This document shows, one piece after another, positions 1 through 15,060 of a stretch of 15,060 nt of DNA. This stretch comes from a virus (Duplodnaviria > Heunggongvirae > Uroviricota > Caudoviricetes): IMG/VR virus record IMGVR_UViG_2875683775_000007; one strand, 5' to 3'. Numbering within the stretch: the first letter of the stretch is position 1; the number at the start of each line of letters is the position of its first letter. Both the position numbers and the translations under genes were made by a program. The notes beneath the pieces are model-generated. The model made no database searches, had not been told where the DNA came from, and worked only from the letters and a program-made list of their open reading frames with translations.

Positions 1-201
1 TTACCCATTGGCGCGGCTTAAGAGCTTATTTTTGAATTCACAATGGTCACGATATAACCATCTTGCTCGCCCGTGGATAACTTTGGCTTTTGGAAGGTCT
101 CCGGACTTAATCCGATCATAGATGAAGGTTTTACCGAAGCCAGTATCGGCCATGATGAATTTCAAATCAACCAGTGAATCAGGCTGTAGTTCGTGTTGCA
201 T
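1..201 (-). CDS. torI: AlpA/TorI-family excisionase (recombination directionality factor), 66 aa
   Basis: Complete 66-aa ORF with stop at 1-3 and ATG at 199-201, preceded by GGAGA about 9 nt upstream. Small basic winged-helix-like protein typical of AlpA/Xis family; sequence matches my recollection of E. coli TorI of the argW prophage KplE1. Same strand as intS, as expected for the unusual KplE1/Sf6/HK620 recombination module. Confidence 0.6.
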   Translation of the reverse strand: MQHELQPDSLVDLKFIMADTGFGKTFIYDRIKSGDLPKAKVIHGRARWLYRDHCEFKNKLLSRANG

Positions 202-706: not shown

Positions 707-1115
707 GGTGTTCTTTCTGTTCTTCAATTCGAATATTGGTTACGTCTGCATGCGCTATCTACGCCCATATCATCCAGTGGTTATAGCAGTCGTTGATGTC
801 CTCTGCTTCGATAACCCTGAGACGGTCGCAAGATGGCTTGATGCTATGGCAAACCTTGAGCGACGAAACGCGCAGTTTAATGAGTTTAAAGCCGAGTGGA
901 TGAGCGCGAATGGCAACCCTGGACAATCGCGTAATGGCGGTCAGATATTGGGGTTGGATGTTAAAAAAGGTGAATCATTGGGGAGTGCCGTTAAGCGGTA
1001 TATGTCAATGAATACTGACGCAGCGCCAGCACAAGATTCGACACCTTCAGGAGAACCACGGAATCAGGTTGGATCATATACATCAAAATCAGGCATTCAA
1101 TTTACGGTGGAATGA
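705..1115 (+). CDS. Small ORF translationally coupled to the downstream gp16-like gene; possibly the 5'-truncated 3' end of a gp20-like ejection-protein gene
   Basis: Stop TGA at 1113-1115 overlaps the ATG of the next gene (ATGATG). The first ~20 codons run through the terminator hairpin and look non-coding, so the real coding start, if any, is later (for example the MANLERRN region). Position matches P22 gene 20 immediately upstream of gene 16. Confidence 0.3.
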
Positions 1116-2953
1116 TGAAAGTAACTGCAAACGGTAAGACATTTACCTTTCCTGATGGTACGAGCACCGAAGATATTGGCACCGCCATTGATGAGTATTT
1201 TGCTGGTCAGGCTGTTCAGCAACAAACAGTTAATCAGGCCAATAATGCACCAACACGGGAAGAGCCATCATTGATCCAACAAGCTGGCGATTGGCTCACT
1301 GGTGGTCAAAGTGCAGGGCAAATTGCAGAACAGGCTGGTCGTGGTCTGGTAAACATACCATTTGACGTATTGCAGGGCGGCGCAAGTCTGATTAATGCAA
1401 TCAGTCAGGGGCTTGGTGGACCCAAGGTTTTGGATGATGTTTATCGTCCAGTAGACAGACCGACAGACCCCTACGCGCAAGCCGGTGAAACAATTGGTGG
1501 GTATTTAGTTCCAGGAGTTGGAACGGCAGGAAGCATGGCTATTGGATCACTGGCAGAGGCCGCAAATCAGAAAGGCGATTTCGCACAAAATGCAGCTAAA
1601 AATGCCGGAGTTAACCTTGCCACTCAGGGTGTTCTTTCCGCAGCAGCAAAGGGAATAGGGCGTGGAATAACGGCTATAAAAGGTGATATTGCGCCAGAAG
1701 TGGCGAAGAAAATTACCACATCAGAATCGATGGGCGTGACACCAATGACATCTGATGTTATCCCGCCGAAAAATGCTTTCACTCGCGGCCTAACTCAGGA
1801 TGCCGAGGGGGCTTTGCTCGGGACAGGCTCAAAGCGAGCGGAGCAATATGCAACGCGTAGTAAGCTGGTAAGTAATTATTTTGACCGTTTTGGTGAGTAC
1901 AACCCTGATGATGTGGTGAAATCTCTTACCACCACGTTAAGGGGGCGGAAGGATGCCGCTGGCGCTGTTATCAATGACGTCACCAATAAAATGGGTAATG
2001 CCGCAGTTGATACCACAAATACCATGAATGCTCTGAATACAGCGATCGCAAGACAGGAACGGCTTGGGACGTCTGCCAATCAAAGCCTGCTTACATCCTT
2101 GCGTAACCTACGTGAAGAATTAGCAAACCCTGCAACTGATTTGGATGTTACGTTTGATCTCTTGCGTCAGCACAGAACAGCATTTAGATCTAATGTTCAG
2201 GGAGATGCTATGGTCTTCCCCAACCAGGCAAAAGCAGCTACCAATATGGTAGAGAATGCAATGTCAAAAGACCTTCGTAACGCAGTTGCTAAAAACCTCG
2301 GTGCATCAGACGCAGCAAAATACCTTAAAGCAAATTCCGATTATGCAAACGTTTATAATAAGGTGCTTAATAAAAACATTGCTAACAAGCTCAACAAGGC
2401 AAGCAGTGAAGCCAGTCCTGAACTTATAAATACCGTTGTATTAAGCAGAAAACCATCTGACGTGAAACGAATATGGAGCGCCCTGGATGATAAAGGGAAA
2501 GATGCTATGCGTGCAGCTTACGTCAGCAAAATAGCGGAAAAGGCCGGTGACTCTCCAGCCAAGTTCATCACTGAAGTTAATAAGCTGAAATCTCAGTCAG
2601 GCGGTGAAATTTACAACACTATTTTTTCTGGAAAGCACATGAAAGAGCTTGATGCTCTTCATGAAGTTCTACAGCAAACAGCAAGGTCAGACACCGCAAA
2701 TGTAGTAACTCAGACGGGGCAATCACAAGCCAACAGGATAAGGACGATTGGCGCAACTGCGACTCTTGGTGTATCAATGGGGCTTGAGGCTGGCTTTGGT
2801 GCAATGATGCGTTTGTATGAGTCCAAAGCAGCAAGGAATGCTCTCTTACGTCTGGCAAACACTAAAGCTGGAACGCCAGCCTATGAAAGAGCGTTGAGTA
2901 ACGCTGCAAATGCCATCAGGCCGCTGCTTGCTACTGAGGCAACACAGCAGTAA
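1112..2953 (+). CDS. Phage DNA ejection/internal virion protein, P22 gp16-like (613 aa)
   Basis: 613-aa Ala/Gly/Gln-rich protein of almost the size of P22 gp16 (609 aa), located immediately upstream of the immI/moron region as in P22 gene order; GGTGGA RBS before ATGATG. Assignment is by size and synteny, not sequence recall. Confidence 0.5.
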
Positions 2954-2977
2954 CGTATGGGGAATTGGATTCAATCG

Positions 2978-3367
2978 TTAACATTTTCTTTTTACTTTTC
3001 CAACAAAAGCTTTGGTTGAATCCATATTCCCATAACCAGAAATGGTTTTCGACATTAAAACTGTTCCATTAGGATGTATTACCCATGAGTCGATAACTCG
3101 TTGAGTTTCGCCATTCGCGCCGATTCCAATGATGGAGTTTTTAGACAATGCTTTGTAAGCCATGCCGCCCGCATCCGTCCCAGAATATGTGATACTGGCA
3201 TCTTCACCGTTTGTCTTAATGATGAATGTTCCACTAAAACCATCTTCTTCCGGTTGAAAATTATTTCGTTCTGAATAGCTTATTCCGTGCATATCTCCAA
3301 CGACCCAGCACTCTGCTGAGACAGAAAACGAGAAGACAAGGAAAGCCATTGCTATAATCAATTTCAT
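2978..3367 (-). CDS. Small secreted protein (cleavable signal peptide, 129 aa), function unknown; prophage moron
   Basis: N-terminus MKLIIAMAFLVFSFSVSA is a typical Sec signal with an AxA-type cleavage site; mature part has Cys near both ends. Lies with mnt on the minus strand in the slot where P22 carries sieA. Confidence 0.6.
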   Translation of the reverse strand: MKLIIAMAFLVFSFSVSAECWVVGDMHGISYSERNNFQPEEDGFSGTFIIKTNGEDASITYSGTDAGGMAYKALSKNSIIGIGANGETQRVIDSWVIHPNGTVLMSKTISGYGNMDSTKAFVGKVKRKC

Positions 3368-3382
3368 TTTAAGCCCTTATTG

Positions 3383-3718
3383 TTATTGATTCTTTTTGCA
3401 CGGAAATGTTTTTCCTACTGCTAGGGCGGTTAGTATAACTGCACTCTCATTTCTTGATTCTGGGTTTTTGTTTAGATATTTCTCAACGATATCGGTGTAT
3501 TGATACATGTCAACGCCATCAGGAGGACATAGAGAACCAATTAGTATCAATGAGTCAGTTACTCCGCGCAAATATCCAGTAATGTAAAGCGATGAAAAAT
3601 CATCACCCTTTTTACCTTGTTGAATGTTGTAAAGAAGGTCATTACCCGTTTGAAGCTCGCGCAGCTCAGCACTGGAAGAAGAGACAACTGCTAACAAGAA
3701 CAGTGATAGAAATCTCAT
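3383..3718 (-). CDS. Small secreted protein (signal peptide, 111 aa), function unknown; prophage moron
   Basis: N-terminus MRFLSLFLLAVVSSSSA is a Sec signal; two Cys in the mature part; its start overlaps the mnt stop by 4 nt, suggesting an operon with mnt. Confidence 0.6.
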   Translation of the reverse strand: MRFLSLFLLAVVSSSSAELRELQTGNDLLYNIQQGKKGDDFSSLYITGYLRGVTDSLILIGSLCPPDGVDMYQYTDIVEKYLNKNPESRNESAVILTALAVGKTFPCKKNQ

Positions 3719-3969
3719 TTCAAATCCTTTTCATAAATCTTTTTAAGTGTCTCAAACACTATAGCCTTGAACTGCTCAGCCTGCTGATCAGCCAAGCGTT
3801 CAGCTTCGTCGCGATATCCTGTAATCGGTGATGGTTTTGATAGTGCATCCTGAACGATTTGTAATAACTCAGAGTTCATTGACCTTCCGTTAGCCTCGGC
3901 TCTTAATTTCAATTTTTCTCTTACTTCCAAAGGCATACGGAAGTTAAAGTGCGGATCATCTCTAGCCAT
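3715..3969 (-). CDS. mnt: Mnt repressor (P22 immI)
   Basis: Protein begins MARDDPHFNFRMP...RAEANGRSMNSELLQIVQDALSKPSP, recognisably P22 Mnt (ribbon-helix-helix); GGAG RBS 9 nt upstream; divergent from arc. Confidence 0.85.
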   Translation of the reverse strand: MARDDPHFNFRMPLEVREKLKLRAEANGRSMNSELLQIVQDALSKPSPITGYRDEAERLADQQAEQFKAIVFETLKKIYEKDLK

Positions 3970-3991
3970 GCCATCACTCCAAGTTAGTGTA

Positions 3992-4021
3992 TTGACATGA
4001 TAGAAGCACTCTACTATATTC
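3992..4021 (+). promoter_or_regulatory. Pant promoter (-35 TTGACA 3992-3997, -10 TATATT 4015-4020) overlapping the Arc operator ATGATAGAAGCACTCTACTAT (3997-4017); divergent Pmnt elements overlap on the minus strand
   Basis: Consensus -35 and near-consensus -10 with 17-bp spacer; the 21-bp spacer/operator sequence matches the P22 arc operator as I recall it. On the minus strand TTGAGA (4020-4025) and TATCAT (3997-4002) form a plausible Pmnt. Confidence 0.7.
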
Positions 4022-4026
4022 TCAAT

Positions 4027-4043
4027 AGGTCCACCGTGGACCT
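4027..4043. promoter_or_regulatory. Mnt operator, perfect 17-bp palindrome AGGTCCACCGTGGACCT
   Basis: Perfect dyad centred at 4035, between Pant and the arc start, matching the known P22 Omnt sequence and position. Confidence 0.75.
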
Positions 4044-4059
4044 ATATTGTGAGGTGAAC

Positions 4060-4221
4060 ATGAAAGGAATGAGCAAAATGCCACAGTTCAATTTGCGGTG
4101 GCCTAAAGAAGTATTGGATTTGGTACGCAAGGTGGCGGAAGAAAATGGTCGGTCTGTTAATTCTGAGATTTATCAGCGAGTAATGGAAAGCTTTAAGAAG
4201 GAAGGGCGCATTGGTGCGTAA
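4060..4221 (+). CDS. arc: Arc repressor (P22 immI), 53 aa
   Basis: MKGMSKMPQFNLRWPKEVLDLVRKVAEENGRSVNSEIYQRVMESFKKEGRIGA is P22 Arc-like throughout; GAGGTG RBS at 4051-4056. The ORF-track start at 3997 lies in the operator and is rejected. Confidence 0.9.
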   Translation: MKGMSKMPQFNLRWPKEVLDLVRKVAEENGRSVNSEIYQRVMESFKKEGRIGA

Positions 4222-4289
4222 AGTTGAAGCCCCAACTGCTGTAACAGTCAGGGCTTCGGCATCAACAAATCGGATTAGGAAATATTGAC
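4222..4289 (-). ncRNA. sar: Candidate sar-like antisense RNA covering the ant RBS
   Basis: Minus-strand promoter-like elements (-10 TATACT, complement of 4296-4301; weak -35) would start transcription near the ant start codon; inverted repeat GAAGCCC/GGGCTTC at 4226-4258 sits about 65 nt downstream. Matches the known arrangement of P22 sar, but the terminator lacks a clear U-run. Confidence 0.3.
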
Positions 4290-5168
4290 ATGAAAAGTAT
4301 AGCAAAGGCACAAAACGATTTCACCATCTTCAAATTCGGCGACAGTGAAATCCGCGTCATCAACAAGTGCGGTGAGCCGTGGTTTGTAGCTAAAGATGTT
4401 TGTGATGCTTTAGATTTGACTAACTCACGCAAGGCGCTTACTGCACTTGATGACGATGAAAAGGGAGTAACTTTAAGTTACACCCTTGGTGGTGAGCAGA
4501 ATCTAAGCATTGTGAGCGAATCAGGTATGTATACATTGGTTCTGCGCTGCCGCGATGCAGTCAATAAAGGTTCAGTCCCGCACAAATTCCGCAAGTGGGT
4601 AACAGCAGAAGTTCTGCCTTCAATTCGCAAACATGGCGAGTATGTAAAAGGAAAGAAAACCACTGTTGAGGAAAGAACACCGCTACGCGATGCAGTAAAC
4701 ATGCTGGTAGGAAAGAAAGGACTTCGCTATGACGATGCATACAATATGGTTCATCAGCGTTTTGGTATTGACAGCATTGATGAACTTTCAATTGAACAAA
4801 TCCCGCTGGCCGTAGAGTACATCCACAGGGTAGTGCTTGAAGGTGAGTTCATTGGCAAACAAGAGAAGAAAACCAACGAGCTTTCTGCAAAAGAAGCAAA
4901 CAGCCTTGTATGGTTATGGGATTATGCCAACCGCTCACAGGCATTATTCCGCGAACTGTATCCGGCGCTAAAACAAATTCAATCGAACTATTCCGGCAGA
5001 TGCTACGACTACGGTCATGAATTCTCGTATGTTATCGGAATGGCGAGAGACGTTTTAATAAACCACACACGAGATGTTGATATCAATGAGCCAGACGGAC
5101 CAACGAATCTTTCCGCATGGATGAGACTTAAGAATAAAGAATTACCTCCTTCAGTACATAACTACTGA
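4290..5168 (+). CDS. ant: Antirepressor Ant (Bro-N domain protein)
   Basis: N-terminal region ([26 protein letters not shown]) is a Bro-N/antirepressor motif; directly downstream of arc as in P22; AGGAAA RBS. Confidence 0.8.
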
Positions 5169-5187
5169 CAGATAACCAACGCAACGA

Positions 5188-5210
5188 CCCAGCTTCGGCT
5201 GGGTTTTTTT
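5188..5210 (+). terminator. Rho-independent terminator after ant
   Basis: CCCAGC-TTCG-GCTGGG hairpin followed by 7 T. Confidence 0.8.
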
Positions 5211-5269
5211 ATGCCCAAAATTCACCGTAGCTACGCTGCGGCGATTCCTTGTATCTGGAGCAAATTAAA

Positions 5270-7918
5270 ATGACAGATTCAATAAATGCCAATGTTGTGG
5301 TAAGCATGCCTTCTCAACTCTTCACTATGGCGCGTTCTTTTAAAGCCGTAGCCAATGGTAAAATTTATATCGGTAAAATTGACACTGATCCGGTAAATCC
5401 AGAAAACCAGATTCAGGTTTATGTGGAGAACGAAGACGGCTCTCACGTTCCTGTTTCTCAACCAATCATCATTAACGCTGCTGGTTATCCGGTATATAAC
5501 GGACAGATTGCCAAATTCGTTACCGTGCAAGGCCATTCTATGGCTGTTTATGATGCGTATGGTGCACAGCAGTTCTATTTTCCTAATGTGCTGAAGTATG
5601 ACCCGGATCAGTTTAAACAAAAAGTATTATCAAATGATATGCTAAATATGTCTCCTCTTTATTTTGGAGCTAAGGGGGATGGGATTAGCGATGATACTGA
5701 AGCATTTGTCGCGTTGGAAATGGATATAAAAAATAGGGTTATTGATTTAAGTGGAAGAGCATTTTTTGTTACTAAAAGTTTTATTGGAAATAGCTATATA
5801 AATGGTTCTTTTATTCGTGATGGCAGTAAACGAATTGCGATTGGTGATCTTAAATTAAGAGATAAAAGAGAGCCGTTGATATTTTCCGGAATGCCAAAAG
5901 TATATAACACCAGACACACGTTGCGCAGAACTGAAGGTGCGGGTGGTTTATATGCGGTCATTCAGGGGTGTTGTTATGATGAAATTAACGACAAGATTTT
6001 TACTTTATCATCTACCACAGCATACGGTTATTGCATTAATGCCTTTGACGTGACGAATTCTGGTGAACTAGGAAGATACGACAGAACCCGTTCTACTGAA
6101 CTTGGGCATCAGGGGCTTGGATTGCATCATAATCCTGATGGTACTGTCGTGCTGTGGACATCGAAGCCTTATGGAACCGATGCCGCCAATCAATGTATTT
6201 CGATGGAAAATATATTGAGTTACACAGGGACAACCAACGGAGTATCTGAAGGTTTTATCACCTGGAAGTTGTTCCCCTATGATGGAATGAGCGCAAGCTC
6301 TACTCCAGCTGTATCAAGTTGTGAAAACTATCTACTTGCCAAGAAAATTTCATCGGATGGAATTACCTGCACGGTTCGTGTTTTCGACATAGTCAGCATG
6401 TGGAATAACAGAGCTCATAAAACTGATTATAGTGATGATTATTTAGTTGAGTTTAGCTATCAAAAACCATCACAAGAAGCATTTACCCAATCAATTGCTT
6501 GCGATGGGGCATACATTTACATACTTGAGTCACATACGTATGTTGGCATGACTAATTATATTTACGTATTTGCCTTAACAGGCAGGTTTATTGAGCGAGT
6601 AGATATTTCAACTGTTGGTGATGATGAAGCAAAATCTGACAGTACAGGAACTCCTGTTTATAAAGAGCCTGAGTCCCTAACAGTAATTAGAACGGAGAGT
6701 GGGTATGTTTTAACGCTGGGGATATGCACATATAAAGGAGTTGCTGAGAACGGGAAAAATGTATATCTGTTTGATATAGGCAGGTCTGGTTCGGTAGTGC
6801 AAAGCAAAGCAAGCCGTTCTGTATCCAGTAATACTGGTCTTCATAGTTCTGGCTCCCCGGAGTTCAAATATGGAGTAAGGGAGTACAATGATACTTTTCA
6901 CTGGACAGTTTGGCCAACAAGAAAGGGTTTTCAAACTAACCGGGATAACCCTATATTGTTTCTTGATGGCGGAATTACTGGTGGAATGCAGTTAGCTTCA
7001 AACGGCACGGAAGGGATGAGCAACTCATGGGTTTCCCGGCATCAGTCAGACACCGCAGAAGGACCAAGAGCAATAATGTATAAGTCTCGCTCTGGTGTTG
7101 TATCAACTGATAATTTTGGAGCTCTGCAGACAGGGGATGTATTGGGTACTCATGTATGGGCCGGTGATACAGGTAGTAAGGCTGTGCAATGCGCACACAT
7201 TAAATGCGTCACAAGAGGTAATCCTTCCGGAGACAATATCCCGGTTGCTTTCTACTTTGGAACCATGGGAGAGAGTGACGGCTTGCGTGACAGATGGGTA
7301 TTAACAGAATTAGGTCATTTTCGACCATCAGGTTCAAATCTTTATGATATTGGTACACAGTCGAATACTGTCAGAAACCTGTATATAAATAATAGCCCCA
7401 TTGTAACCAGCGACAGAAATTATAAGCAGGATGAAGCTTCATTATCTGATGCAGAACTACGGGTTGGAATGGCTATTTACCCGCTGATAAAAAAATTCAG
7501 AATGAAGGATGCTGTAAAAGAAAAAGGCTTGTCAGCGCGTGAGCATATCGGTGTAATTGCGCAAGATATACAATCCATCTTTGAATCTGAGGGGCTTGAT
7601 GCATTTTCTTATGGGGTTCTTTGCTATGAAGAGTGGGATGATGAGTATGAGAAAGTCTATGCAACAAGAAATGTGACCAGAAAAATTTTAATTGATGAAG
7701 AGTCTGGTCAGTATGATGAAATCACAGAGGAAGAAGAGTATGAAACTGGTGAAGTAAGGTTAATTATGGAATCAGGAAGAAAATTATCAGTGCGCTATGA
7801 CGAGTTAATGTTTCTGGCAATGAGCGCACTATATCATCACCATGAGCAGGATATTGCCAATATCACATCAAAGATTAATAATCTGGAAAAATTATTAAAG
7901 TTAACACTAAATGGTTGA
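5270..7918 (+). CDS. Tailspike protein: P22 gp9-like head-binding N-terminus, right-handed beta-helix (pectate-lyase-like) receptor domain, C-terminal intramolecular chaperone (peptidase S74-like) domain
   Basis: [44 protein letters not shown] is near-identical to the P22 tailspike N-terminus as recalled; [14 protein letters not shown] is the hallmark start of pectate-lyase-type beta-helix domains; C-terminal ~150 aa (SDAELRVG...[12 protein letters not shown]...) resemble the auto-cleaving chaperone domain of endosialidases and tail fibres. Start chosen at 5270 (GGAG RBS) rather than 5249. Confidence 0.85.
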
Positions 7919-7964: not shown

Positions 7965-9080
7965 TTAAATTTCAGCTATAAAACCTTCATAATTATTTTG
8001 TAAAAAAGGTTTGATGAACTTACGCTGAGGGGTATAAATCATATCCTGATTTACTAAATCTGAGCGGATATTGAAAGTGGTTGAGAGCATGTTAAAGAAC
8101 ATCCTTTTCTTTTGCTCGTTGCCACCTGCTTTACCACATACCTTTTCCATCATTTCAAGGCATATCACCAGCCACGCATTGTAAAGCTTGGCCTTTTCTT
8201 CGTTAGTTTTTCCGCAAAAGTAAATCGTGTTAATAACCGAGTTAAGAATGAAGTGTCTATCTTCAAGAGGAAATTTTTGCCTTGATAAATGACCATTACC
8301 ATGGAATGTTAAATGATAATAATCTTTGTCAGCAAGAATAGATATATTGTTTGCTACAGATAGAGATTGAACCATAAATATTTTATCTTCAGCTACGGTG
8401 ATAGCTGGGTTGAAGAGAATGTTATGCTCTTTAAGCATATTTCTTCGGAAGAATTTGAAAATAGTTAACGACCGCAAGAGGTGATGCTTGGTTATATCTG
8501 CCTTATCTACAATTTTCACCTTGTATGGACGGATAGGCACCTCGCGATTACCATCTGATGCAATTTTGAAGTAAACAATATCACTATTATTTTTATCAGC
8601 AATATGAACCCCTCTCTCAAGAAGAGTTTCGTCAATATAGTCATCGGAATCCATGAAGAAAATATAACGCCCTTTTGCTGCTTTTATCCCCTCATTTCGC
8701 GGGGTTGAAGCGTTACCTGAACCAATTTCTCGGCGAATAATTCTGTAGTTAATATCCGGTGCTATATTATATTCTATAGCAGCAATGCTTTTGTCACTTG
8801 AACAATCATCGACAAAAATAACCTCAAAGCGATCCTTATTAATTGTTTGGTTATTAAGTGAGTTAATGCATTTAAGAATAAGTTTTTCACGATTATGAAC
8901 AGGGATAACAACTGACACATCTAATGGGCAAAAATGGTTAATCTCATTAACTACAGTCGTTATTTTAGTAAAAGCCGCCAACAAAGCTGTTGTTAAATCA
9001 GTAGAAGATAAAAGGCTTTCTTTTTTAGTATTAGCTTTTATGTTAAAATAGAACCAATTATTACGAGGTACAAAATCCAC
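7965..9080 (-). CDS. Family-2 glycosyltransferase catalytic-domain ORF (downstream part of phase-variable gene; frame stays open upstream through the repeat)
   Basis: VSVVIPVHNRE...FEVIFVDDCSSD...FFMDSDDYID are GT2 (GT-A fold) signature motifs including the DxD. The ORF-track M at 9080 is a GTG with no RBS; in this frame the sequence reads (SQPA)n-FVSV upstream with no stop. Gene is visibly AT-rich compared with the flanking chromosome. Confidence 0.8.
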   Translation of the reverse strand: MDFVPRNNWFYFNIKANTKKESLLSSTDLTTALLAAFTKITTVVNEINHFCPLDVSVVIPVHNREKLILKCINSLNNQTINKDRFEVIFVDDCSSDKSIAAIEYNIAPDINYRIIRREIGSGNASTPRNEGIKAAKGRYIFFMDSDDYIDETLLERGVHIADKNNSDIVYFKIASDGNREVPIRPYKVKIVDKADITKHHLLRSLTIFKFFRRNMLKEHNILFNPAITVAEDKIFMVQSLSVANNISILADKDYYHLTFHGNGHLSRQKFPLEDRHFILNSVINTIYFCGKTNEEKAKLYNAWLVICLEMMEKVCGKAGGNEQKKRMFFNMLSTTFNIRSDLVNQDMIYTPQRKFIKPFLQNNYEGFIAEI

Positions 9081-9082
9081 GC

Positions 9083-9433
<351 letters not shown>

Positions 9434-9976: not shown

Positions 9977-11134
9977 TCACTCCACCTTTTCATCAATCCA
10001 GTCCGCCCACCACTGCATCATTTCTCTGCGCTTATCTAGATACTGAGCATGGTTGTAAATCCCGCGCACAGATCCGCCGTTGGCATGTGCCAGTTGCACT
10101 TCAATGGCGTCGGCGGGCCATTCGTGCTCGTTCATAATCGTGCTGAATTCATGCCTGAATCCGTGACCGCTTTCCAGACCTTCATAGCCGATTTTTTTGA
10201 TCACAAGCAGTACCGCATTCTCGCAGATTGGCTTCTTCTTATCGTTGCGACCGGCAAAAACAAACTCTGATACTGGTTTAGTGATTGAGCTTAGCGTAGT
10301 GAGAAGTTCAACTACCTGGTCTGACATAGGAACCACATGAATTTTGCGTCCCTTCATCACACTGGCGTCGATGGTGATAATCCTGTTTTCAAAATCGACG
10401 TTCTTCCATAGCATGGAACGAAGCTCTTTCGTTCTTAGGGCTGTGTAGCGCAAAACTTTAGTCGCAATGAGCGATACGATGCTTCCTGAAAATGTTGCAA
10501 GTGCTTTGTTGAATGCCGGGATCTGGTCGGCAGGAAGAAACGGGAAGTTCTTCTTGCGGTATCCCTTCATGGCGTCAGCAAGGTCAGGTGCTGGGTTATA
10601 TTTAGCCCTGCCGGTGACAATAGCGTAACGGAAAACCTCGCCGCATCTTCTGCGGGCTTTGTTGGCTCGCTCCATTGCACCGCGATCTTCGAATCTGCGG
10701 ATTACTTCCAGCAGTTGCATCGGCTCAATATCCTGAATCTCAAGGCCGCCGATGATGGGCAAAATGTCGTCATCAAACATTTTGGCAAGTTCAGTTGCAT
10801 AGCCTACTGACCAGACTTGCTTCTTGTGCTCGTACCATTCCTTGTAAATCGCACTAAATGAATTGTTGTTAGACGAAGCCTTTTTCGCCTTTACCGGGTC
10901 GATGCCAACCGAGATGTCTTTCCTCGCGGTCCATGCTTTATCCCTTGCTTCCTGCAAAGTCATAAGCGGATATTTTCCGACGGTCAGGATTTTCTCCTTA
11001 CCGTCAATCTTGTAGCGAAGCTGCCATACCTTTTTCCCTGACACAGGGACATAAAGGTACAGGCCATTACCATCGAGTAGGCGGTATGGTTTTTCTTTCG
11101 GCTTTGCTGCTTCAATCTGCTTAACGGTGAGCAT
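9977..11134 (-). CDS. intS: P4/KplE1-type tyrosine integrase (385 aa from MLTVKQIE start)
   Basis: Adjacent to the 3' end of argW and co-oriented with it; N-terminus and length match IntS of the argW prophage as I recall it; C-terminal region carries the tyrosine-recombinase catalytic domain. An alternative upstream GTG start at 11170 (ORF track) cannot be excluded. Confidence 0.85.
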   Translation of the reverse strand: MLTVKQIEAAKPKEKPYRLLDGNGLYLYVPVSGKKVWQLRYKIDGKEKILTVGKYPLMTLQEARDKAWTARKDISVGIDPVKAKKASSNNNSFSAIYKEWYEHKKQVWSVGYATELAKMFDDDILPIIGGLEIQDIEPMQLLEVIRRFEDRGAMERANKARRRCGEVFRYAIVTGRAKYNPAPDLADAMKGYRKKNFPFLPADQIPAFNKALATFSGSIVSLIATKVLRYTALRTKELRSMLWKNVDFENRIITIDASVMKGRKIHVVPMSDQVVELLTTLSSITKPVSEFVFAGRNDKKKPICENAVLLVIKKIGYEGLESGHGFRHEFSTIMNEHEWPADAIEVQLAHANGGSVRGIYNHAQYLDKRREMMQWWADWIDEKVE

Positions 11135-11180
11135 GGGTAAAAATCCGGTGGGTAAAATTATTTTATCCACTTTTTACCCG
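11135..11180. promoter_or_regulatory. Clustered GGGTAAAA(A/T) motifs (two direct, one inverted) at the int start, in the attL/int promoter region
   Basis: GGGTAAAAA at 11135-11143, GGGTAAAAT at 11150-11158, inverted copy CTTTTTACCC at 11171-11180; candidate integrase arm-type or RDF binding sites. Confidence 0.35.
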
Positions 11181-11295
11181 TCATGGAGTGCGGCTGTCAA
11201 CGATCTGACGCGAACCATTACGAACTGTGCATCTACAGAAGGCTTGATATTCAGGGGATTTTGCGGACTGGTACGGATGGGGGCGAACTGATAAA

Positions 11296-11370
11296 TGGTG
11301 TCCCCTGCAGGAATCGAACCTGCAATTAGCCCTTAGGAGGGGCTCGTTATATCCATTTAACTAAGAGGAC
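11296..11370 (-). tRNA. argW: tRNA-Arg (anticodon CCU), 75 nt including CCA
   Basis: Reverse complement reads GTCCTCTTAGTTAAATGGATATAACGAGCCCCTCCTAAGGGCTAATTGCAGGTTCGATTCCTGCAGGGGACACCA; cloverleaf with 7-bp acceptor stem, anticodon loop CUCCUAA, T-loop TTCGATT. Confidence 0.95.
11310..11325. other. attL core candidate inside argW (16 bp identical to 221-236)
   Basis: Exact direct repeat of the 221-236 sequence, located in the tRNA T-arm next to the integrase gene. Confidence 0.55.
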
Positions 11371-13911: not shown

Positions 13912-13966
13912 GGTGATGCTGCCAACTTACTGATTTAGTGTATGATGGTGTTTTTGAGGTGCTCCA

Positions 13967-14242
13967 GTGGCTTCTGTTTCTATCAGCTGTCCCTCCTGTT
14001 CAGCTACTGACGGGGTGGTGCGTAACGGCAAAAGCACCGCCGGACATCAGCGCTATCTCTGCTCTCACTGCCGTAAAACATGGCAACTGCAGTTCACTTA
14101 CACCGCTTCTCAACCCGGTACGCACCAGAAAATCATTGATATGGCCATGAATGGCGTTGGATGCCGGGCAACTGCCCGCATTATGGGCGTTGGCCTCAAC
14201 ACGATTTTACGTCACTTAAAAAACTCAGGCCGCAGTCGGTAA
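13967..14242 (+). CDS. insA: IS1 InsA (transposition inhibitor/N-terminal part of InsAB' transposase)
   Basis: 91-aa protein [23 protein letters not shown]... matches IS1 InsA. Confidence 0.9.
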
Positions 14243-14664
14243 CCTCGCGCATACAGCCGGGCAGTGACGTCATCGTCTGCGCGGAAATGGACGAACAGTG
14301 GGGCTATGTCGGGGCTAAATCGCGCCAGCGCTGGCTGTTTTACGCGTATGACAGTCTCCGGAAGACGGTTGTTGCGCACGTATTCGGTGAACGCACTATG
14401 GCGACGCTGGGGCGTCTTATGAGCCTGCTGTCACCCTTTGACGTGGTGATATGGATGACGGATGGCTGGCCGCTGTATGAATCCCGCCTGAAGGGAAAGC
14501 TGCACGTAATCAGCAAGCGATATACGCAGCGAATTGAGCGGCATAACCTGAATCTGAGGCAGCACCTGGCACGGCTGGGACGGAAGTCGCTGTCGTTCTC
14601 AAAATCGGTGGAGCTGCATGACAAAGTCATCGGGCATTATCTGAACATAAAACACTATCAATAA
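14161..14664 (+). CDS. insB: IS1 InsB reading frame (expressed as InsAB' transposase by programmed -1 frameshift)
   Basis: 167-aa frame [21 protein letters not shown]... matching IS1 InsB; overlaps the insA 3' end in the -1 frame. Confidence 0.85.
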
Positions 14665-14679
14665 GTTGGAGTCATTACC

Positions 14680-14688: not shown

Positions 14689-15060
14689 ATGATCGGAACC
14701 AGTTGCAAATGATTCTGCCATGATAGCTTTACTGCTTTCAAACCACGCTGAAGCACTCCTGGCGTTTTCACTACAATATTGGGTGAGACTATCACCATTA
14801 ATACGAATTCCTCTTTGAATGTGGTAGTCGTCCTGATCGTAGTAACCGAGAGATAAGTAATCATTTCCGTTTTTATTTTTAATTACAATAGCGAGAGAGT
14901 CGCCTTTTTTATCTTTACCGTACCAGGTAAATAAGTCCGTTGGTTCGCTTTTCCCGCTCTCATCAAATTCCGTTACCGTATGTCTGAGTTTGTGTGATAT
15001 CTTATCGAAGATAAAACCAGGATCTCCATCATATATTTCTTTTAATGCGCTGAAGATCAT
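14680..15060 (-). pseudogene. 5' portion of the same IS1-interrupted gene (runs to the window edge; may continue beyond it)
   Basis: 127 native codons ending in QVV (the TSD) before the ORF-track frame runs into IS1; joins in frame to 13609-13911 once IS1 and one TSD copy are removed. Confidence 0.6.

Follow-up and report, generated by a model that had tools for sequence, protein, structure and literature searches.

The immunity I (immI) region of phage P22 (GenBank X01916, BK000583) is among the best-studied phage regulatory modules, and the discovery value of a further copy is therefore small. In P22 it is located between gene 16 and the tailspike gene 9, its antirepressor Ant is composed of the Pfam domains P22_AR_N and P22_AR_C, and its antisense RNA sar was established experimentally, according to references 62-64 cited in PMC2629481. 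The family to which it belongs, the "ant morons", is known to be mosaic (PMC2629481). Two further systems are close to the locus described here. The first is the Escherichia phage vB_EcoP_Kapi1 (MT813197), a complete, viable temperate phage, and the second comprises the P22-like prophages at argW of E. coli, represented in RefSeq by the apparently intact prophage of strain SJC33 and the degraded element of PSJ-29.

The window, i.e., the whole analyzed stretch of 15,060 nt, contains at positions 3715-5210 a module that, judged by its sequence, is confirmed as an undamaged copy of the P22 immI switch, real but ordinary. It is very probably a sequence-intact homologue of the P22 ant moron within an approximately 11.4-kb remnant of a P22-like prophage at the argW tRNA gene in E. 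coli, with a regulatory logic that would be that of P22. Gene order, orientation and position were the same as in P22. The gene-16 homologue (1112-2953; PF26808 Phage_P22_gp16, hit on the identical gene in L005/L006) is upstream of the module and the tailspike gene with its P22 head-binding domain (5270-7918) is downstream, and, thus, the module occupies the usual place between ejection-protein and tailspike genes of a P22-like genome. A sequence-only reading had proposed an intact P22-type immI switch in a truncated prophage, and all elements that it named were recovered at the same positions or within 1-2 nt.

The truncation was also verified. Positions 1-747 represent the torI/xis end of the element, which adjoins dsdC, and match the argW element of PSJ-29 on its torI side. 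Positions 810-5638 are 99% identical to the SJC33 prophage, and this match begins 306 nt before the end of the gp20-like gene, i.e., with its last 102 codons. The deletion junction must be in the interval 748-809, between the end of the PSJ-29 match and the start of the SJC33 match. In SJC33 the 20 kb upstream span ninH/Q, lysis, head and tail genes. As torI/xis and one early gene are joined directly to the 3' end of the gp20 homologue in the window, the remnant has no immC and no replication, lysis or head genes, and it differs in this respect from P22 and from Kapi1. The neighbours of the module in the argW prophages, namely the gene-16 homologue, the Rap1a-like gene, intS, argW, yfdC and mlaA, are shared with SJC33 and PSJ-29. 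In contrast to these, the deletion in the window is larger and joins torI and one gene to the gp20 3' end, the receptor-binding part of the tailspike differs, and the window has an extra glycosyltransferase gene. None of the complete E. coli genomes covered 80% or more of the whole window, but an exact protein look-up led to contig MNKV01000008.1 of GCA_002092895.1, with 100% identity, as its source. The module itself (1,496 bp) was found with 99.5-99.9% identity in 43 of 5,426 complete E. coli genomes, in at least one case in an apparently intact prophage; the SJC33 copy is 99.9% identical.

For the comparison with P22 the annotated features of BK000583 were carried through the alignment to window coordinates. 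Positions 3970-4259 were about 97% identical to P22 (96.9% for arc and 97.4% for the terminator half of sar), and 52 of the 54 bases of the promoters and operators were the same. Pant, the promoter of arc and ant, has the sequence TTGACA-17-TATATT on the plus strand (3992-4020; 11 of 12 consensus positions) and maps onto P22 14793-14821. Pmnt is located on the minus strand (4025-3997; TTGAGA-17-TATCAT, 10 of 12), maps onto P22 Pmnt 14798-14826, and overlaps Pant face to face. The overlapping divergent promoter pair that had been recognised from the sequence is thus present, with hexamers identical to those of P22. A promoter scan alone yielded four promoter-like sites versus 2.7 +/- 1.7 expected from shuffles, and, since this count was not above the shuffles, the scan was dropped as independent evidence and positional homology was used instead. 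Pant, Pmnt and the sar promoter Psar are exactly where the annotated P22 promoters map. Chance is excluded by this homology to P22 (the 52 of 54 bases) and not by the motif scan.

The 21-bp Arc operator Oarc (ATGATAGAAGCACTCTACTAT) is located at 3997-4017 between the -35 and -10 hexamers of Pant and does not differ from its P22 counterpart (14798-14818). The Mnt operator Omnt at 4025-4045 is a perfect 10+1+10 palindrome (ATAGGTCCAC-C-GTGGACCTAT, 100% complementary) with a 17-bp core at 4027-4043. The core half-sites of 8 bp each are identical to P22, and only two bases of the operator differ, 4035 in the centre and 4044, where the change extends the palindrome relative to P22. Omnt lies directly 3' of the Pant -10 hexamer and should therefore cover the Pant start, the position of which is itself predicted. 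Exact dyad symmetry had been claimed for both operators. This holds for Omnt, but Oarc, like the P22 operator, has imperfect dyad symmetry. By direct reading roughly 6 of its 10 symmetric positions agree, and the complementarity reaches 76% in the best inverted-repeat register.

The first gene of the Pant operon is arc (4060-4221, plus strand), which encodes a ribbon-helix-helix repressor of 53 aa (Pfam Arc, 9.8e-31). The protein is 98% identical to P22 Arc, the sole change being the conservative R16K, and it matched the solved P22 structures (PDB 1arq/1par, E=5e-31). A longer open reading frame (3997-4221, 74 aa) was rejected as arc, because the start of P22 Arc is equivalent to the ATG at 4060 and the upstream ATG is inside Oarc. 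The maintenance repressor gene mnt is on the minus strand (3969..3715) and encodes 84 aa with a ribbon-helix-helix N-domain and a C-terminal tetramerisation coil. Both Pfam domains, Arc (3.7e-28) and Repressor_Mnt (1.3e-11), were above their gathering scores, and the match to the solved P22 structure was strong (PDB 1mnt, E=1.2e-38). Mnt is 80% identical to P22 Mnt, with three differences within residues 1-52. In the alignments, Gln9/Asn11/Arg13 of Arc and Arg2/His6/Asn8/Arg10 of Mnt were the same as in P22; these we take to be the DNA-contact residues, following work of the Sauer laboratory. The C-terminal coil of Mnt differs from P22, with 62% DNA identity over 3715-3814 and a Repressor_Mnt score of 44 bits versus 73 bits for P22 Mnt, and, therefore, tetramerisation is only assumed. 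NCBIfam did not place Mnt, Arc or Ant in any useful family. The alignment to P22 immI revealed no disabling mutation in arc, mnt or ant, and no disabling change was present in the three promoters, the two operators or sar.

This lack of damage can be read in two ways. It is possible, and we consider it tentatively, that the module is an inert relic, intact merely because the truncating deletion is recent, without a role in the present host and bound to decay. Together with its flanks, the module shows 99-99.9% identity to apparently intact prophages, so that little time has elapsed, and a recent deletion, rather than function, may account for the lack of damage. The cognate target is also gone, since the remnant has lost its own c2/immC and Ant has no cognate target in cis. 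Ant morons furthermore occur in many states of decay, with degraded ant genes in HK620 and Scho1 and with mnt-only morons (PMC2629481), and GMF054 carries the same tailspike/glycosyltransferase module as the window with an Arc-family (mnt-like) gene alone, without arc or ant. Against this stands the absence of any disabling mutation from the three genes, three promoters, two operators and sar. A relic would, moreover, be compatible with an operable module, and this reading disputes the biological relevance of the switch but not its mechanism.

The antirepressor gene ant (4290-5168, plus strand) is an uninterrupted open reading frame of 292 aa, and the earlier claim of a full-length antirepressor was therefore correct. 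Its product contains an N-terminal Bro-N domain (Pfam, 2.8e-20) and a C-terminal P22_AR_C domain (6.7e-30). The architecture is not that of P22 Ant, because P22_AR_N is replaced by Bro-N over the N-terminal ~115 residues. From residue ~120 on, i.e., over the C-terminal ~175 residues, the protein is about 90% identical to P22 Ant, as read off the alignment, whereas the part before is unrelated. The label "P22-type" is thus appropriate for mnt, the operators and arc, but for Ant it does not extend beyond the C-terminal ~175 residues. In contrast, only one residue differs from the Ant of the temperate coliphage Kapi1, and by sequence the window ant is a Kapi1-type domain-swap variant. At the DNA level the stretch that begins at the arc stop codon and includes sar, ant and the ant terminator is 98% identical to Kapi1. 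This terminator (5186-5212, plus strand; GACCCAGC-TTCG-GCTGGGTT followed by a T run) has the same sequence as the annotated P22 ant terminator. Kapi1 and the window element are both located at argW (PMC8787464), and their integrase regions are 96% identical. However, the identity between Kapi1 and the window drops to 42% for Mnt and 40% for Arc, and this divergence is so large that the Kapi1 operators presumably differ too.

The domain composition of Ant is important for the proposal that the remnant acts in trans. According to this proposal, any lapse of the control by Mnt would allow Ant to inactivate the repressors of lambdoid prophages, P22-like prophages or satellites in the same cell. 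The remnant would in this way couple or trigger the induction of other elements, and the retention of mnt would be explained by the death of polylysogens that lose it. P22 Ant acts on the repressors of P22 (C2), L, lambda and 21, and Gifsy prophages are coordinated by trans-acting antirepressors (PMC3121763). In addition, Ant is full length in the window, and its P22_AR_C half is about 90% identical to P22 by alignment reading. However, Ant of the window begins with Bro-N and not with P22_AR_N, and, therefore, the repressor specificity is not transferable from P22. The PDB sequence search returned no structure for Ant, literature searches yielded no usable report on which Ant domain binds repressors, and Kapi1 Ant is not implicated in the Kapi1 PICI paper. 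Three layers of repression (Mnt, Arc and sar) would also restrict Ant to a brief pulse. Trans-induction of co-resident lambdoid prophages is thus plausible by analogy, its one basis being the published breadth of P22 Ant (PMC3121763), but as an account of this remnant we regard it as unlikely. If it is true that the orphan Ant acts on other prophages, it would be an added case of cross-talk from a defective element.

The region downstream of mnt is also different from P22. In P22, mnt is followed by a terminator and orf59a, and both are missing in the window, as is sieA. Instead, a gene for a Rap1a/Tai-family periplasmic immunity-like protein of 111 aa is present on the minus strand (3383..3718; Pfam Rap1a, 9.7e-15), in agreement with the RefSeq annotation. 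The start codon of this gene and the stop codon of mnt overlap (ATGA), so that the gene is probably co-transcribed from Pmnt, and no terminator-like site was found on the minus strand between the two genes. A further idea is that the orphan module was co-opted. Either Mnt and Pmnt would serve as a constitutive driver of a host-beneficial moron operon, which would consist of the Rap1a-like T6SS immunity gene and a neighbouring secreted protein, and mnt would be retained in an addiction-like manner because its loss releases Ant, or the Bro-N/P22_AR_C Ant would be a trans-inducer of other prophages or satellites. We consider such a co-option quite improbable.

The last element of the module is the predicted sar, a cis-antisense RNA of about 70 nt (4289..4220, minus strand), which spans the spacer between arc and ant together with the ribosome-binding site of ant. 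It matched Rfam RF00262 at 4288..4222 (minus strand) with 65.6 bits, versus a gathering score of 43 (E=5.7e-12); the covariance match was full length (model positions 1-68 of 68) and ended 1 nt before the ant ATG. The RNA is predicted to fold into two stem-loops, as in P22 sar (minimum free energy -29.8 kcal/mol, z=-5.96), the 3' one of which (4226-4257) is the terminator hairpin. The 5' half, including the ant ribosome-binding site, is merely 37% identical to P22. Both RNAs are nevertheless predicted to form an anti-Shine-Dalgarno loop closed by a 5' stem of 6-7 bp, followed by the same 14-bp terminator stem. The predicted Psar (4324-4296, minus strand; GTGAAA-17-TATACT with a TG extended -10) maps onto P22 Psar 15097-15125 and lies inside the first 12 codons of ant. 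Its extended -10 TGCTATACT (TG-C-TATACT) is the same in P22 amid an otherwise diverged ant 5' coding sequence. P22 Psar scores below the threshold of the promoter scan, and the window Psar is therefore at least as consensus-like. The candidate sar that had been suggested, with a promoter at the ant start and a hairpin at 4226-4258, is thus supported as a bona fide sar homologue. The alternative that sar is absent, with the hairpin serving only as an attenuator or terminator between arc and ant and the promoter match on the minus strand being fortuitous, is very improbable, because, although the promoter scan was not significant by itself and the T tail after the hairpin is weak (CAACUUU), the covariance match was well above the Rfam gathering score, the extended -10 and the 5' stem were kept, the latter despite 63% sequence change, and the same tail is found in the P22 sar established experimentally (references 62-64 cited in PMC2629481).

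The mosaic join of the module falls inside sar. The module is a mosaic of P22-like mnt, operators and arc and a Kapi1-like ant, with the common sar terminator as the crossover zone, and as a whole it still fits the P22 immI/ant-moron family despite the Ant domain swap. This mosaic is already known, as dozens of E. coli genomes carry it in annotated form and its ant is found also in phage Kapi1.

Because every cis element is nearly identical to P22, we infer the expression and the regulatory logic of the immI switch in the source strain from the observed sequence features and homology. Mnt produced from Pmnt would bind to Omnt over the Pant start and keep arc and ant off, and with Pant occupied by Mnt the overlapping Pmnt would be favoured, which in the window element probably drives the Rap1a-like gene too. 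After loss of Mnt, Pant would fire, Arc would then bind to Oarc and shut both promoters, and sar transcribed from Psar inside ant would pair with the ant ribosome-binding site and block translation. Due to the shut-off by Arc and the block by sar, Ant would be seen only as a short pulse. Most likely the module is locked in the Mnt-on, ant-off state, with Mnt at Omnt and ant silent. In Kapi1 lysogens mnt transcripts were undetected (PMC12922286), which counts against an operable switch, but this comparison is limited, since the mnt and arc of Kapi1 share only about 40% identity with their counterparts in the window.

As an example, the locus is of modest value for two reasons. First, a complete, self-contained antirepressor circuit has persisted in a defective 11-kb remnant after the repressor that it counteracted was lost. 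Second, the mosaic joint is within a cis-antisense RNA, yet the RNA fold and the promoter are preserved. As a side observation, a (GCCA)47 tract splits a prophage glycosyltransferase gene. No description of a (GCCA)n glycosyltransferase was found in the literature. The pattern is that expected of phase variation, and this split gene is more unusual than the immI module.

The region at 3715-5210 corresponds to a region already known as immI or the 'ant moron', whose mosaic variability has been documented (PMC2629481). Among 5,426 complete E. coli genomes, 43 had the same 1.5-kb module at 99.5-99.9% identity, and RefSeq labels it as two Arc-family proteins and an Ant/P22AR-C protein. Genes were called by reading of the sequence and an ORF listing, and families were assigned with Pfam. 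The module comprises mnt (3969..3715, minus strand, 84 aa; Arc and Repressor_Mnt), arc (4060-4221, plus strand, 53 aa; Arc) and the antirepressor gene ant (4290-5168, plus strand, 292 aa; Bro-N and P22_AR_C). Mnt matched the solved P22 structure 1mnt (E=1.2e-38), and Arc matched 1arq/1par (E=5e-31).

Arc differed from P22 Arc solely by R16K, and the arc DNA was 96.9% identical. Mnt was 80% identical to P22 Mnt, with the N-terminal 52 residues almost as in P22 and a diverged C-terminal coil. The residues known to make the DNA contacts, i.e., Arg2, His6, Asn8 and Arg10 of Mnt and Gln9, Asn11 and Arg13 of Arc, were the same as in P22. The sequence-only reading had described an intact switch with a full-length antirepressor and had suggested an alignment with P22 immI. 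This alignment, run against BK000583, revealed neither a frameshift nor a premature stop in the module and no damage to its operators and promoters, and ant was indeed full length.

The P22 feature positions were carried onto the window by alignment with the annotated record BK000583 (window position = position in locus L001 minus 258). This placed Pant at 3992-4020 (plus strand), Pmnt at 3997-4025 (minus), Oarc at 3997-4017, the Mnt operator at 4021-4043, sar at 4220-4289 (minus) with its terminator at 4220-4257, and Psar at 4296-4324 (minus). An independent consensus scan recovered the promoters at exactly these coordinates, i.e., TTGACA-17-TATATT for Pant, TTGAGA-17-TATCAT for Pmnt, and GTGAAA-17-TATACT preceded by TG for Psar, and the overlapping, divergent arrangement of Pant and Pmnt recognised earlier was thus recovered. 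The number of sites in the scan was not above chance (4 versus 2.7 +/- 1.7), and, therefore, the weight rests on the homology to P22. P22 and the window shared 52 of 54 bases in the promoters and operators. Omnt (4025-4045) is a perfect palindrome (10+1+10); it differs from P22 at the central base and at one flank base, and the latter change makes the palindrome longer than that of P22. Oarc has the same sequence as P22 Oarc, an imperfect dyad, and thus the exact dyad symmetry claimed for both operators applies to Omnt only.

All requirements of P22 immI are self-contained and conserved in the module, so that the module would be expected to follow the logic of P22 (summarised in PMC2629481). 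Mnt expressed from Pmnt would occupy Omnt and block Pant. Once Mnt is gone, the arc-ant mRNA would be transcribed from Pant, Arc at Oarc would close both Pant and Pmnt, and sar would block the translation of ant. With c2 lost, Ant has no target in cis. The steady state should be Mnt-on and ant-off. In lysogens of the temperate coliphage Kapi1, the mnt of which differs from that of the window, mnt transcripts were not detected (PMC12922286), and this result calls for caution about the proposed state.

The stop codon of mnt and the start of a Rap1a/Tai-family gene overlap (ATGA at 3715-3718), and there was no terminator-like site downstream of mnt on the minus strand, whereas in P22 a terminator-like hairpin follows directly after mnt. 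Because of the overlap and the missing terminator, this moron is probably also expressed from Pmnt. The gene (3383-3718, minus strand), which is joined to the mnt operon, encodes a T6SS amidase-immunity-like protein with a signal peptide. The next gene (2978-3367, minus strand) encodes 129 aa with a hydrophobic N-terminus resembling a signal peptide, and no family match was found for its product. P22 has orf59a and sieA in place of these two genes. Pmnt probably drives both of them in the lysogen, and, if so, the prophage would carry an orphan T6SS immunity gene.

The left end of the window contains torI/xis (1-201, minus strand) and one small gene, and the right-hand part contains intS (9977-11170, minus), the tRNA-Arg(CCU) gene argW (11296-11370, minus), yfdC and mlaA. 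Up to position 747 the window matched the argW element of E. coli PSJ-29 at its dsdC-proximal end, and from 810 onward it was 99% identical to the P22-like argW prophage of strain SJC33. The latter is apparently intact; the fetched 20 kb upstream, which do not reach the early region, extend from ninH/Q through the lysis, head and tail genes. The SJC33 match starts just 306 nt before the end of a gp20-like ejection gene. An exact-protein look-up yielded a 100% identical contig, MNKV01000008.1 (GCA_002092895.1), in which dsdC lies directly left of torI. The 16-nt att core at the argW 3' end, ATGGTGTCCCCTGCAG, is present at 11295-11310 and at 4643-4658 of the comparison locus L005 (own coordinates), the left copy lying 88 nt outside the window start. 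Read from the sequence, the element measures about 11.4 kb, with attL and attR as its ends, and comprises xis, one early gene, a gp20 fragment, gene 16, two small secreted-protein genes, immI, the tailspike gene, a glycosyltransferase gene and int; immC, replication, lysis and head genes are absent from it. The proposed truncation of the prophage was thus verified by the matches on the torI side and at the gp20 3' end and by the missing genes. The remnant has retained torI/xis, intS and both att-core copies, and for this reason it may still be excisable. It can be likened to KplE1 in K-12, which is excisable.

One rival reading is that the module is an inert relic: apparently intact prophages share 99-99.9% identity with it, which implies a recent deletion, and the intactness of the switch need not result from selection. 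Another rival reading is that Ant could act in trans on other prophages in the cell. P22 Ant works on the repressors of L, lambda and 21 (PMC3121763). However, the N-terminal domain differs: as read from the alignment, P22 Ant is matched with roughly 90% identity over residues of about 120-292, whereas the first about 115 residues are unrelated and form a Bro-N instead of a P22_AR_N domain. In addition, structure and literature searches revealed neither a solved structure nor a domain mapping for Ant.

The P22-type switch itself is a mosaic. In a megablast search of phage records, P22 and its relatives matched mnt, arc and two-thirds of ant at its 3' side, and Kapi1 matched with 98% over the part that starts at the arc stop codon and runs to the end. 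The Ant proteins of Kapi1 and the window are one residue apart over their whole length, while Mnt and Arc are only about 40% identical, and thus, judged by sequence, the left side of the module is P22-like and the right side Kapi1-like. The stretch 4220-4259, the sar terminator hairpin, was the sole one with high identity among P22, Kapi1 and the window, and it is likely the crossover zone between the mnt-arc and ant halves. The mosaic joint falls inside the cis-antisense RNA sar, with fold and promoter kept on both sides.

The sar family of Rfam (RF00262, gathering score 43) matched 4288..4222 (minus strand) at full model length with 65.6 bits (E=5.7e-12), and the predicted RNA has a fold of -29.8 kcal/mol (z=-5.96) with two hairpins, as in P22 sar. 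The 3' hairpin (4226-4257) was almost identical to that of P22, with 97.4% identity for the terminator half, in contrast to only 37% for the 5' half. Despite this divergence the 5' half forms a 7-bp stem around a loop that carries UCCU, the complement of AGGA in the Shine-Dalgarno of ant; the corresponding elements in P22 are a 6-bp stem and CUCC. Psar has a conserved extended -10, TGCTATACT, while the surrounding ant codons have otherwise diverged. The experimentally established P22 Psar falls outside the calls of the same promoter scan, and thus the window Psar is at least as good. The sar that had been offered as a candidate is supported by the family match, the fold and the promoter-like site at the P22-mapped position, and its absence is unlikely, as both the covariance-model score and the conserved Psar speak against it.

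The product of the tailspike gene (5270-7918, plus strand) has a P22 head-binding domain at its N-terminus and Peptidase_S74, an endosialidase-type intramolecular chaperone domain, at its C-terminus; no domain was assigned to the part in between. Just 2 contigs in a large gene index carried the exact protein.

The tailspike gene and intS are separated by a GT2 glycosyltransferase gene (7965-9433, minus strand), which is split by a perfect (GCCA)47 tract on the coding strand (9277..9090). The leader ORF runs from the ATG at 9433 to a stop at 9083, and the GT2 frame, out of register, continues to 7965; a fusion would need one more GCCA unit or two fewer. In E. coli GMF054, a locus with 100% identical flanks has 70 units. 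The glycosyltransferase-gene region there (100% identical) belongs to a different P22-like remnant, at torS/torT, and adjoins a tailspike gene close in length to that of the window (2,646 versus 2,649 nt). Homologous leader-repeat-GT2 genes occur in P2-like prophages, including in E. coli B, between tail-fibre and tail-sheath genes. They have 18, 20, 35, 50, 66 or about 86 units, and the fused form (ON; 449-540 aa) occurs with, and only with, unit counts divisible by three. Leader/repeat matches were present in 954 of the 5,426 complete E. coli genomes, and literature searches yielded no published description of a (GCCA)n glycosyltransferase. The gene has the appearance of a widespread, prophage-borne glycosyltransferase with slipped-strand phase variation, and its product is probably a phase-variable modifier of surface polysaccharide.

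Beyond mlaA, a 768-bp block (13912-14679), absent from the PSJ-29 and SJC33 genomes, interrupts the region. Its two ORFs (13967-14242 and 14161-14664) are taken by us to be IS1 insA/insB-like, and the block looks like an IS1 element inserted into the yfdF-side region that adjoins mlaA. In the identical strain the draft contig stops at this block.
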